Shown here one piece after another: positions 33,185-39,148 of a DNA stretch of 64,000 nucleotides. Under the pieces are notes generated by a model, which saw only the letters and a list, made by a program, of their open reading frames with translations, was not told the origin of the DNA and made no database searches. Every line of letters starts with the position of its first letter. The first letter of the stretch is position 1. A program made the position numbers and the translations under genes. The DNA lies in assembly GCA_964016885.1 (NCBI GenBank), contig OZ024742.1, positions 116,684,001 through 116,748,000 on the forward strand, read 5' to 3'. The DNA comes from Eledone cirrhosa (lineage: Eukaryota).

Positions 33185-33680
33185 TAAGAAACTCACGCAC
33201 CAGTTGCTTTCACTCCAATTTAGTATAAATTAAATTATAAATTTAAAAATTTATAAATTTCCGGTTGGTTGGTTGGTTACACAACCGGATGGGTGTTCAT
33301 ATATTGTCAAAGTTCTTTCGTCAAACATTCTGTGACCTCTTCAGTGACTGGGATTCTTTTCTTTGTTTTCCCATTATGCCAAACTCATGACTTCCAAATA
33401 TCTGATCCACTGAAACTCAGCTCTTTCGGATCACACCAAAATCAACATATTGATTGTGGATTTAGTACGAGTGATGAGAAACGTGTCCCGCATGTGCAAA
33501 CCCAAAGAACGAGAGAGACACATACAACACTTCATCCACCATATGCAGTTCTCTGGTTACAATCAGAGAGATAAAATCAGAGTATATAGAGGAGCCAGAA
33601 CCAAATGGGAAAAATTGGTAAATAATGATACAAGTGGGACACAGGGAACTGGAATAATAGTTAGTTTGAAACTGTAATGC
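33185..33680. mobile_element. Penelope-like element relic: inverted pLTR with HHR (minus) abutting a 5'-truncated RT-thumb ORF fragment (plus)
   Basis: ORF 33450-33677 DLVRVMRNVSR..HFIHHMQFSGYNQRDKIRVY resembles the PLE RT C-terminal R..RN.S...F...M..SGY motif. A minus-strand HHR lies at 33306-33348. Confidence 0.62.
33306..33348 (-). ncRNA. Minimal type I hammerhead ribozyme, slightly degenerate
   Basis: Minus strand: gtca-CTGAAGA-g gtca cagaatgtt tgac-GAAA-gaac tt-tgac. Stem I gtca/tgac, stem II gtca/tgac. Confidence 0.6.
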
Positions 33681-36589: not shown

Positions 36590-36780
36590 GGATGGCTGTT
36601 GACTCTTATGAGTTCTTCCGCCCTTTGTAAGGTTTTGTTTTTTGTCCTGCAGGGTGTCCAAAATCACCCTCCTCACCAAGTAAACTTGTTGGGTTTGTCG
36701 GTTTAGTTGCCAACGAACCGACCATGCAACAAGTTGTACTGGGTTATATGTTATCAGTAGCACTCAAGGGTGACCCGACA
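36590..36780 (-). mobile_element. Interspersed repeat with a diverged copy at ~50200-50380 on the opposite strand
   Basis: Shared taacccagtacaacttgt..catggtcgg..ggtgaggagggt. Family not identified. Confidence 0.6.
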
Positions 36781-37184
36781 TATGTATATATATATATACA
36801 TACATTTGTATATATATATATATGCGTATATATATACATACATATATATATACACACATATGTATATATATACATATGTATATATATAGATGTATATATA
36901 TATACATACATATATGTATATATATATATATATATACATATGTATATATATATGTATATATATATACATACATATGTATATATATGTATATATATTCTTA
37001 CATATATATATATATATATATATTTACATATTTATATATATATACATACATATGTATATACACATATATATATATATATATGTGAATATAGACATAGAAT
37101 ATTCGAAAATATTCTGTATGTTTATAATAAACATTTTGAAGACCTAATCGCTATAGAATAGAATACGTCACGTATTACAATTAG

Positions 37185-37273
37185 ATTCTCGATAAAAGCA
37201 AGGGAAGTAATCTACGCGTTTCATTCTTGTTAGAAATCATCAGGACCACATATCCAGTGCTTTTATCGAGAAT
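37185..37273 (-). ncRNA. Type I hammerhead ribozyme, copy 1
   Basis: Exact reverse complement of 38022-38110. Predicted cleavage between 37213 and 37212. Confidence 0.9.
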
Positions 37274-37494
37274 GACACAGCTAGAGACTTATAGAATACT
37301 TAGCTGTGTACAGGAACTGGTTTGAAAGAACGGTTGCCGGTCCGGCAGAAATTAGAAATTGGAATAAATGCTCTGAAATAGCGATATATATGTGAATATA
37401 GACATAGAATATTCGAAAATATTCTGTATGTTTATAATAAACATTTTGAAGACCTAATCGCTATAGAATAGAATACGTCACGTATTACAATTAG

Positions 37495-37583
37495 ATTCTC
37501 GATAAAAGCAAGGGAAGTAATCTACGCGTTTCATTCTTGTTAGAAATCATCAGGACCACATATCCAGTGCTTTTATCGAGAAT
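37495..37583 (-). ncRNA. Type I hammerhead ribozyme, copy 2
   Basis: Identical to copy 1, offset +310 bp. Confidence 0.9.
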
Positions 37584-37804
37584 GACACAGCTAGAGACTT
37601 ATAGAATACTTAGCTGTGTACAGGAACTGGTTTGAAAGAGCGGTTGCCGGTCCGGCAGAAATTAGAAATTGGAATAAATGCTCTGAAATAGCGATATATA
37701 TGTGAATATAGACATAGAATATTCGAAAATATTCTGTATGTTTATAATAAACATTTTGAAGACCTAATCGCTATAGAATAGAATACGTCACGTATTACAA
37801 TTAG

Positions 37805-37893
37805 ATTCTCGATAAAAGCAAGGGAAGTAATCTACGCGTTTCATTCTTGTTAGAAATCATCAGGACCACATATCCAGTGCTTTTATCGAGAAT
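37805..37893 (-). ncRNA. Type I hammerhead ribozyme, copy 3
   Basis: Identical to copy 1, offset +620 bp. Confidence 0.9.
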
Positions 37894-38021
37894 GACACAG
37901 CTAGAGACTTATAGAATACTTAGCTGTGTACAGGAACTGGTTTGAAAGAGCGGTTGCCGGTCCGGCAGAAATTAGAAATTCCTGTACACAGCTAAGTATT
38001 CTATAAGTCTCTAGCTGTGTC

Positions 38022-38110
38022 ATTCTCGATAAAAGCACTGGATATGTGGTCCTGATGATTTCTAACAAGAATGAAACGCGTAGATTACTTCCCTTGCTTT
38101 TATCGAGAAT
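38022..38110 (+). ncRNA. Type I hammerhead ribozyme, copy 4
   Basis: attctcgataaaagca-ctggatat-gtggtc-CTGATGA-t ttct aaca agaa t-GAAA-cgc GTA|gattac-ttccct-tgcttttatcgagaat. Stem I gtggtc/gattac plus a perfect 16-bp distal stem; palindromic stem III acgcgt. Predicted cleavage after 38082. Confidence 0.92.
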
Positions 38111-38331
38111 CTAATTGTAATACGTGACGTATTCTATTCTATAGCGATTAGGTCTTCAAAATGTTTATTATAAACATACAGAATATTTTCGAATATTCTA
38201 TGTCTATATTCACATATATATCGCTATTTCAGAGCATTTATTCCAATTTCTAATTTCTGCCGGACCGGCAACCGCTCTTTCAAACCAGTTCCTGTACACA
38301 GCTAAGTATTCTATAAGTCTCTAGCTGTGTC

Positions 38332-38420
38332 ATTCTCGATAAAAGCACTGGATATGTGGTCCTGATGATTTCTAACAAGAATGAAACGCGTAGATTACTT
38401 CCCTTGCTTTTATCGAGAAT
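38332..38420 (+). ncRNA. Type I hammerhead ribozyme, copy 5
   Basis: Identical to copy 4. Predicted cleavage after 38392. Confidence 0.92.
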
Positions 38421-38641
38421 CTAATTGTAATACGTGACGTATTCTATTCTATAGCGATTAGGTCTTCAAAATGTTTATTATAAACATACAGAATATTTTC
38501 GAATATTCTATGTCTATATTCACATATATATCGCTATTTCAGAGCATTTATTCCAATTTCTAATTTCTGCCGGACCGGCAACCGCTCTTTCAAACCAGTT
38601 CCTGTACACAGCTAAGTATTCTATAAGTCTCTAGCTGTGTC

Positions 38642-38730
38642 ATTCTCGATAAAAGCACTGGATATGTGGTCCTGATGATTTCTAACAAGAATGAAACGCG
38701 TAGATTACTTCCCTTGCTTTTATCGAGAAT
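38642..38730 (+). ncRNA. Type I hammerhead ribozyme, copy 6
   Basis: Identical to copy 4. Predicted cleavage after 38702. Confidence 0.92.
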
Positions 38731-38861
38731 CTAATTGTAATACGTGACGTATTCTATTCTATAGCGATTAGGTCTTCAAAATGTTTATTATAAACATACA
38801 GAATATTTTCGAATATTCTATGTCTATATTCACATATATATCGCTATTTCAGAGCATTTAT

Positions 38862-38922
<61 letters not shown>

Positions 38923-38998
38923 AGCAAAGAGTTTTGTTGGTAATTCAACAAATATATATATTTATAACTGATTCAAAGCACTCAATATAATACATAGC

Positions 38999-39148
38999 AA
39001 CAATTTCTTTCCATCGCACATATTATTAAACCCTTCAATGTTCAAACCTTAACTTAACATTATTCTTAATACATATTAACAATTTCTTTCCATCGCACAT
39101 ATTATTAAACCCTTCAATATACAAACCTTAATTTAACATTATTCTTAA
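38999..39148. repeat. Tandem duplication, 79-bp period, 2 copies
   Basis: caatttctttccatcgcacatattattaaacccttcaat..aaaccttaa.ttaacattattcttaa occurs at 39001 and 39080. Confidence 0.9.

Follow-up and report, generated by a model that had tools for sequence, protein, structure and literature searches.

Head-to-head arrays of a young retrozyme-like 310-bp repeat in Eledone cirrhosa have two fixed outer ends

How does a tandem repeat come to stand head-to-head with itself inside a microsatellite? The question is raised by a 64,000-nucleotide stretch of the Eledone cirrhosa genome (assembly GCA_964016885.1, contig OZ024742.1, positions 116,684,001 to 116,748,000, forward strand; hereafter the window), which contains two oppositely oriented arms of a 310-bp repeat whose hammerhead-sense strands are both directed outward (Table 1). 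The original prediction, made from the letters of the window, described an inversion that becomes one continuous array of about 5.8 units when the right arm is flipped, with both outer ends merging into (TA)n through microhomology. The arm coordinates bear out the inversion and its polarity. The array totals 5.8 units, extending beyond the interval in which it was first recognised, and its arms are in register (right-arm end at unit position 164 versus left-arm start at 162, a 3-nt overlap within the microhomologies), so that the flipping description is accurate; the outer ends enter (TA)n over 8 nt on the left and 2 nt on the right, as had been described. The flanks are pure TA, and a target duplication is therefore unreadable at this locus. 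The Logan unitigs from four runs of the same organism do not span the centre of the array, and A-end/TA junctions occur as loose ends in read-derived contigs. The right flank also contains a 79-bp direct duplication (93%; window 38988-39148).

Table 1 Features of the head-to-head array in the window. Positions are those of the 64,000-nt window; position 0 of the unit is placed directly after the predicted hammerhead cleavage site.
Feature	Position	Strand	Details
AT-rich microsatellite target, left flank	36780-37081	none	
Left arm	37074-37980	minus	907 bp, 2.93 units of the 310-bp repeat; one substitution, at 37330
Left arm ends		minus	outer: sense 3' end, unit position 138 (site A); central: sense 5' end, position 162
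Site A	37074-37083	minus	(AU)4 tract of the RNA, able to pair with the (TA)n target end; putative reverse transcription start
Predicted hammerhead, left arm	37822-37875, 37512-37565, 37202-37255	minus	
Central head-to-head junction	37979-37980	none	2-nt microhomology (TT) common to both arms
Right arm	37979-38867	plus	889 bp, 2.87 units of the 310-bp repeat; zero substitutions
Right arm ends		plus	central: sense 5' end, position 206; outer: sense 3' end, position 164 (site B)
Predicted type I hammerhead, right arm	38040-38093, 38350-38403, 38660-38713	plus	first copy: cut after 38082
Tail (interval from site A to site B, site B at its end)	38842-38867	plus	terminal on the right arm only
(TA)28 target, right flank	38866-38922	none	

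The repeat is tandem and non-coding, with a 310-bp period, 99-100% matches and a regional GC content of 31-33%. All six units of the window have a type I hammerhead core (CUGANGA, GAAA, UH) with its three helices (helix I of 6 bp, helix II of 4 bp and a palindromic helix III, ACGCGT), the motifs being ordered GUGGUC / CUGAUGA / UUCU-AACA-AGAA / GAAA / CGCG / UA / GAUUAC in each unit. A short palindromic helix III is described for metazoan hammerheads in the accessible text of PMC4209133. Rfam gave no match in the window repeat at gathering thresholds; the best hit on the unit, HH9 (17.7 bits, E 0.12; gathering score 52), is sub-threshold, so the ribozyme remains a prediction. The 11 core positions are free of the 30 fixed variants, weak by itself with about one expected in 30, and contain 5 of the 133 singletons (4.7 expected); frequent hammerhead variants sit at variable positions or preserve helix pairs. 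Folded as a circle, the unit reaches -67.4 kcal/mol (z = -4.4 versus 150 shuffles); among the listed runs that contain the unit, none is catalogued as RNA. The 310-bp repeat is a young non-LTR-retrozyme-like element with a predicted hammerhead. Four loci (L051, L059, L083, L090) have haplotypes with 1-2 nt insertions just past the predicted cleavage/ligation site, present in every unit of both arms.

Two groups of outer ends recur in the family, site A (unit positions 124-138) and site B (164-171). B-end/TA junctions (position 164 followed by TA) number 1,061 genome-wide, that is at least 1,061 insertions; the junction pattern for ends at 129/138 gives 1,578 rows, a figure that includes double counting. 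We examined 140 elements: the window, the 20 best BLAST loci and two sets from contig C1, one B-anchored (the first 100 consecutive 164-ends, one of them also among the BLAST loci) and one A-anchored (the first 20 ends at 129/138 without a 164 partner). Every two-armed locus examined is head-to-head, and no coding sequence was found between the arms of the loci examined. In the B-anchored set, 92 loci have a second arm that ends at A (91 by script, L163 by eye), 2 have a second arm whose far end is out of range, 4 are single-armed and 2 reach N gaps; two-armed copies thus make up 94 of the 98 readable loci. In the A-anchored set, six loci are single-armed and 14 two-armed; the latter have B as their second end, 13 of them at 166-171 and L094 with a B arm of 11 nt. 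Single-armed elements amount to 11/140, and both A-only (six) and B-only copies occur. Tabulation of these copies confirmed that TA targets recur: about 90% of the sampled insertions are head-to-head in (TA)n, with a divergence of 0.04%. By its insertion anatomy (the 1,061 B-end junctions and the target duplications described below) the family is dispersed, non-autonomous and mobile.

Some copies depart from this simple form. One insertion with an identical centre is present twice, 1.5 kb apart, next to an N gap (L071), which may reflect a local duplication or an assembly error. The longest arms reach 14 kb, 8.5 kb and 5.9 kb (L086-L087, L063, L064) and have recurring variant blocks; judged from these blocks, very long arms are the product of unit-level growth after insertion in some loci. 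A near-identical unit (a 340-nt contig with 1-2 differences, corresponding to the common 275A haplotype) occurs in runs of four other organisms from four studies (X4, X8, X9, X11) at a depth of 7-128, versus several hundred thousand in the source organism, and the contig closes on itself in three of the four runs; twelve further organisms have 0.24-0.30 of the unit's sequence words in common. The unit in the runs of other organisms may come from cross-contamination by a high-copy repeat or from recent horizontal transfer.

The outer ends follow a strict rule. In the 121 two-arm loci with both ends at these sites, the A end lies at 129 in 62, at 138 in 39 and at 117-137 in 20, the last being partly loci whose variant shortens the match; the B end lies at 164 in 103 and at 165-171 in 18. 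One A is paired with one B in 121/121 loci, A+A and B+B pairs being absent (0 and 0). Coordinates alone gave the same picture along C1:1-170.7 Mb (78 A-ends and 67 B-ends), where 40/40 head-to-head neighbours are A+B. The spacing from A to B is 35 or 26 nt, and the tail is on one side only in all 121. A ends are those expected of a TA primer annealed to the (AU)4 tract of the RNA; at B ends 1-3 nt can pair, and the RNA there is predicted to be unpaired. Because sampling was anchored on A or B ends, insertions that end elsewhere are under-represented; one was met (L031, position 208). Left out of the 121 were this locus, the second copy of the duplicated L071 insertion, a sister-family cluster in L181, three two-armed loci whose far end lies beyond the stretch (L048, L162, L208) and 15 loci called single-armed by script, of which L061 and L171 terminate in N gaps and, by eye, L094 and L163 have B arms of 11-19 nt.

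Target duplications can be read where the TA tract is interrupted. Both flanks have an interrupted TA run in 10/110 loci, versus 1.6 expected (Fisher p = 2e-9), and 10/10 of these have a common direct repeat of 10-14 nt, microhomology included, versus 17/90 swapped pairs. Of seven loci with an interruption in a single flank, two (L102 and L107) match as well and four have it outside the span; L073 is compatible only with a duplication no longer than 9-10 nt. Where the flanks are informative, the target is thus seen to be duplicated over about 10-12 bp. The fixed 3' ends, the target duplication and the dispersed young copies support the original proposal of a retro-insertion into a TA microsatellite by target-primed reverse transcription, with priming at both DNA ends, an RNA template read over several rounds and spread via RNA rather than by unequal crossing-over.

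We next consider what the template was. The two arms of a locus have the same haplotype in 86/88 loci with arms of at least 450 bp (shuffles: mean 13, maximum 24), 27 haplotypes being distinguished. Fifteen variants, in 14 loci, are fixed in every covered unit of both arms and confined to one locus. With a singleton rate of 3.7e-4 (133 in 357 kb), a one-unit template should yield about 14 private fixed variants of this kind in the 121 loci, and a multimer template as many as about 32 unit-specific variants common to both arms (86 kb covered twice). The latter class was observed in two loci (L044 and L082), versus 80 variants that are arm-specific; two further rows, in L206, represent a haplotype site with one reverted unit. 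L172 has two haplotypes in identical order in both arms, and L073 and L181 have arm-specific blocks. Since 90% of the arms are longer than one unit and run through hammerhead sites (median arm about 1 kb), the simplest template is a circle that was read over and over. The variant distribution points to a template that was probably one RNA molecule, mostly a monomer and probably circular; L172, L044, L082, L073 and L181 may reflect occasional multimers or later conversion.

The features from which a mechanism has to start were counted directly: the two-arm geometry, the fixed A and B ends, the target duplication, the random microhomology centres, the arms running through hammerhead sites and the single haplotype per locus. 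We consider it likely that an enzyme of a Penelope-like element (PLE) reverse-transcribes one, probably circular, RNA from both DNA ends, starting at two fixed sites. A Penelope-like RT/GIY-YIG enzyme would cut both strands of a (TA)n tract with a stagger of about 10-12 nt, yielding two 3' ends. One DNA 3' end would pair with the (AU)4 tract and prime at A, and the other would start at B, about 26-35 nt downstream, with 1-3 bp of pairing. Both polymerases would move in one direction along the RNA, the second stripping off the cDNA made by the first, and each would circle the RNA several times. The two cDNAs, of the same polarity and unable to anneal, would then be fused by microhomology-mediated end joining. 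A 310-nt monomer circle holds one A and one B, so the A+B rule would be forced. According to the accessible text of PMC11167929, a PLE protein that is a predicted dimer cleaves both strands of AT-rich DNA in vitro and extends them, reverse transcription beginning at two internal RNA sites that bound the tail. The two strands did not differ in start site in that assay, which counts against the strict A+B pairing.

The array centres bear on how the arms were joined. The central 5' ends are uniform across the unit (chi-square p = 0.41 and 0.86); a cluster at 153-178, apparent in the first 70 loci, was gone at 120. Microhomology of 1-6 nt is found at 67 centres and of 16 nt at one, 16 are blunt and 37 have insertions, and the mean central overlap is 2.1 nt versus 0.75 for random joins. 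Several central insertions are copies of nearby unit sequence; polymerase-theta joining leaves insertions copied from nearby sequence. Arm 5' ends are not concentrated at the hammerhead cut (5/240 versus 8.5 expected), and across 120 loci there is no excess of arms that stop at their own start site. Two centres have foreign sequence between the arms (272 bp in L096, 54 bp in L183); by eye, the L183 insert looks like a second repeat (present in L150:871-1123) in reverse complement, a likeness that suggests a template switch before joining.

It is against these centres that a fold-back origin has to be set, in which a single priming event at B is followed by fold-back and self-copying of the cDNA, the endonuclease opens the hairpin at A and links it to the opposite flank, and central deletions come later. 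This is close to the self-priming and endonuclease-resolution ideas in PMC3846280 and PMC8557442, self-priming on antisense RNA being proposed for PLEs in the former. It would give head-to-head arms, the A+B rule and common haplotypes without one RNA serving two enzymes, would account for L172, L044 and L082, and fits the weak correlation of arm lengths (Spearman 0.23, p = 0.012). However, near-palindromic centres are not in excess (14/120 within 15 nt, 12 expected), and a later deletion would be required at every locus despite the divergence of 0.04%. The A arm is the longer one in 56/121 loci, by more than one unit in 38, and B arms can be as short as 11-19 nt (L094, L163); the six A-only copies likewise count against it. 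Moreover, the A ends fit a TA primer on (AU)4, and both PLE sites are reverse transcription starts in vitro. We therefore regard a fold-back origin as unlikely.

Also improbable, in our judgement, is that an asymmetric enzyme dimer acted on two RNA molecules, or on one long uncleaved linear multimer, rather than on a monomer circle. PLE hammerheads cleave poorly and the main in vitro substrate is uncut RNA, which would favour a multimer, as do L172, L044 and L082, in whose two arms unit-specific variants occupy matching unit indices; the arm differences in L073 and L181 would also be explained. Two independent RNAs, however, would lead to matching haplotypes in about 13 of the 88 loci instead of the 86 observed. 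On a multimer a new variant could not become fixed in all units, yet the 15 private fixed variants and 27 haplotypes exist; a multimer would also permit the A+A and B+B pairs that are absent.

A single probable circle with two fixed starts also differs from the twin priming of L1 elements, in which two cDNAs reportedly copy adjacent, non-overlapping parts of one RNA from a variable internal site (an account associated with Ostertag and Kazazian). The geometry of the window had originally been interpreted as a twin-priming 5' inversion, with the in-register junction as its signature. L1-type in-register priming on a linear 1.8-kb transcript would match the window, where the register is correct within 3 nt, and L1 insertions are like the 310-bp arrays in that both target ends prime on one RNA, with outward polarity and central microhomology. 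The signature does not extend to the family: only 5/120 other two-arm loci are in register within 3 nt, versus 5.4 expected (p = 0.63), so in-register inversions recur at chance level. Random joins bring either arm within 3 nt of register in about 4.5%, and there is no excess at 5, 10 or 15 nt among these 120 loci (9 within 5 nt, 8.4 expected; 18 within 10 nt, 15.7 expected). The in-register junction of the window is a matter of chance. Both start sites are fixed family-wide, the arms copy overlapping sequence, the centres are uniform, the register is random and poly(A) priming is lacking, all unlike L1, which makes the L1-type reading very unlikely; the geometry is the one already known from PLEs. 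A later DNA-level inversion of satellite arrays, or an assembly artefact, could be suspected from the window junction not bridged in read-derived contigs and from the long arms that expand after insertion (L086-L087, L063, L064), but is just as implausible when, of the 98 readable consecutive B-anchored loci, 94 have two arms, with a junction unique to the locus, fixed ends and target duplications, flanks are not mirrored and A-end/TA junctions are also present in read-derived contigs.

The two-ended mechanism leads to the question of the enzyme. The genome contains 10,597 GIY-YIG candidates (PF01541), of which 150 were scored and 50 stretches examined; none of these 50 contained a coding PLE whose pseudo-LTR is homologous to the unit. 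The unit matches in L112, L141 and L155 are independent insertions of a sister repeat. An open frame of 938 aa (L141:4509-7322, minus strand) has RVT_1 and GIY-YIG matches, with the RT just below the curated cut-off, and a CX4CXXC motif before the nuclease, of the type described for Neptune/Nematis and linked to (TA)n targets. It belongs to a Neptune-like PLE family (also L142, L146, L149, L150, L152) whose copies are about 98% identical, with a hammerhead-like motif (GAAACCGGTA) upstream of the A end and a 63-nt tail; the family is a candidate driver, by its youth only. Eight coding copies with RT and GIY-YIG (L146, L150, L152, L157, L122, L158, L130, L160) are head-to-head in (TA)n and, as inverted copies with readable ends, have the tail on exactly one arm, ending in TA; three further coding copies (L156, L147, L159) gave no clear reading and lie outside the eight. 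The window itself has a hammerhead-like motif (33295-33350, minus strand) nearly identical to one in a PLE locus (L143:8523), probably a PLE pseudo-LTR fragment, and a short frame with a YADD motif (57515-57620, plus strand), likely a decayed non-LTR reverse transcriptase fragment.

The sister repeat has a unit of about 318 bp, some 75% identical to the 310-bp unit, with B at the same offset and 1,345 B-end junctions. In 20 stretches, A+B was found in 15 elements and B+B in none, 6 being single or unclear; what looked like a B+B pair in L240 turned out to be two A+B elements side by side. Its copies (L221-L240, L112:2440-2871, L141:1-419) are older, with shorter arms and a partly degenerate hammerhead core.

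The mechanism proposed for the 310-bp repeat would also account for the inverted pseudo-LTR with a one-sided tail in coding PLEs. We rate as evenly balanced the broader proposal that PLE enzymes run two reverse transcriptions in tandem on one RNA, one per end of a double-strand cut and from two fixed sites; that on a monomer circle this becomes double rolling-circle reverse transcription, writing a kilobase palindromic 'satellite' in one step, of which about a thousand young loci are the record; and that this supplies the explanation so far lacking for why all PLEs have an inverted pseudo-LTR and a one-sided tail. The family is a large and very young record (0.04%) of insertions with one A, one B, a 10-12 bp stagger, one template and a random end-joined centre. 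It ties retrozyme arrays to PLE enzymes through insertion anatomy rather than phylogeny, and argues that these 'satellite' arrays start out as multimers, reverse-transcribed from a small RNA. It also offers a sharp prediction for the existing in vitro PLE assay, and a two-ended, multi-round RNA-to-DNA writer would be of enzymological interest. In the accessible texts, the origin of the tandem or inverted PLE structure is called undefined (PMC8557442), and the movement of animal retrozymes is a hypothesis (PMC7229834 and the 2026 preprint cited below).

Metazoan retrozymes, as described in the accessible text of PMC7229834 (Cervera and de la Pena 2020), are dispersed, non-coding tandem units of 170-400 nt with GC below 50% and a type I hammerhead; their circles are hypothetical templates for reverse transcription, with PLEs as candidate enzymes. 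A 2026 preprint (Li et al., bioRxiv 10.64898/2026.07.22.740005) derives retrozymes from pseudo-LTRs and invokes unequal crossover for local amplification; the words 'inversion' and 'priming' are absent from its accessible text. The 310-bp repeat is like the metazoan non-LTR retrozymes in its non-coding tandem unit, low GC, one predicted type I hammerhead per unit, dispersal and coexistence with PLEs. In contrast, those are described as head-to-tail, with mobilisation left open in the accessible descriptions, whereas the 310-bp arrays have two head-to-head arms from the outset, outer ends fixed at A and B, and a duplicated target. No published head-to-head retrozyme arrays or one-of-each start sites were found in the openly accessible literature. 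The two-armed insertion form of a retrozyme-like repeat is new, and its RNA-based insertion is supported.

PLEs with an inverted pseudo-LTR share with the 310-bp repeat the head-to-head form, the tail at one end and the AT-rich or (TA)n targets (PMC3846280, PMC8557442); in the accessible text of PMC3846280 the inverted pseudo-LTR has a 31-bp tail on one copy and duplications of 8-10 bp, versus 10-12 bp here. In both, the reverse transcription starts, putative in the repeat, lie 85-190 nt downstream of a hammerhead with a palindromic helix III (Poseidon-Ac, PMC11167929), and the PLE tail of 30-40 bp compares with 35 or 26 nt in the repeat. Unlike PLEs, the 310-bp repeat has no ORF, its arms are many rounds of one 310-nt unit and its centres are not palindromic. 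The PLE papers, in their accessible texts, call the tail optional or often at one end (the latter in PMC8557442), whereas in the 310-bp repeat the exclusive pairing of one A with one B, and with it the one-sided tail, was counted in 121/121 loci.
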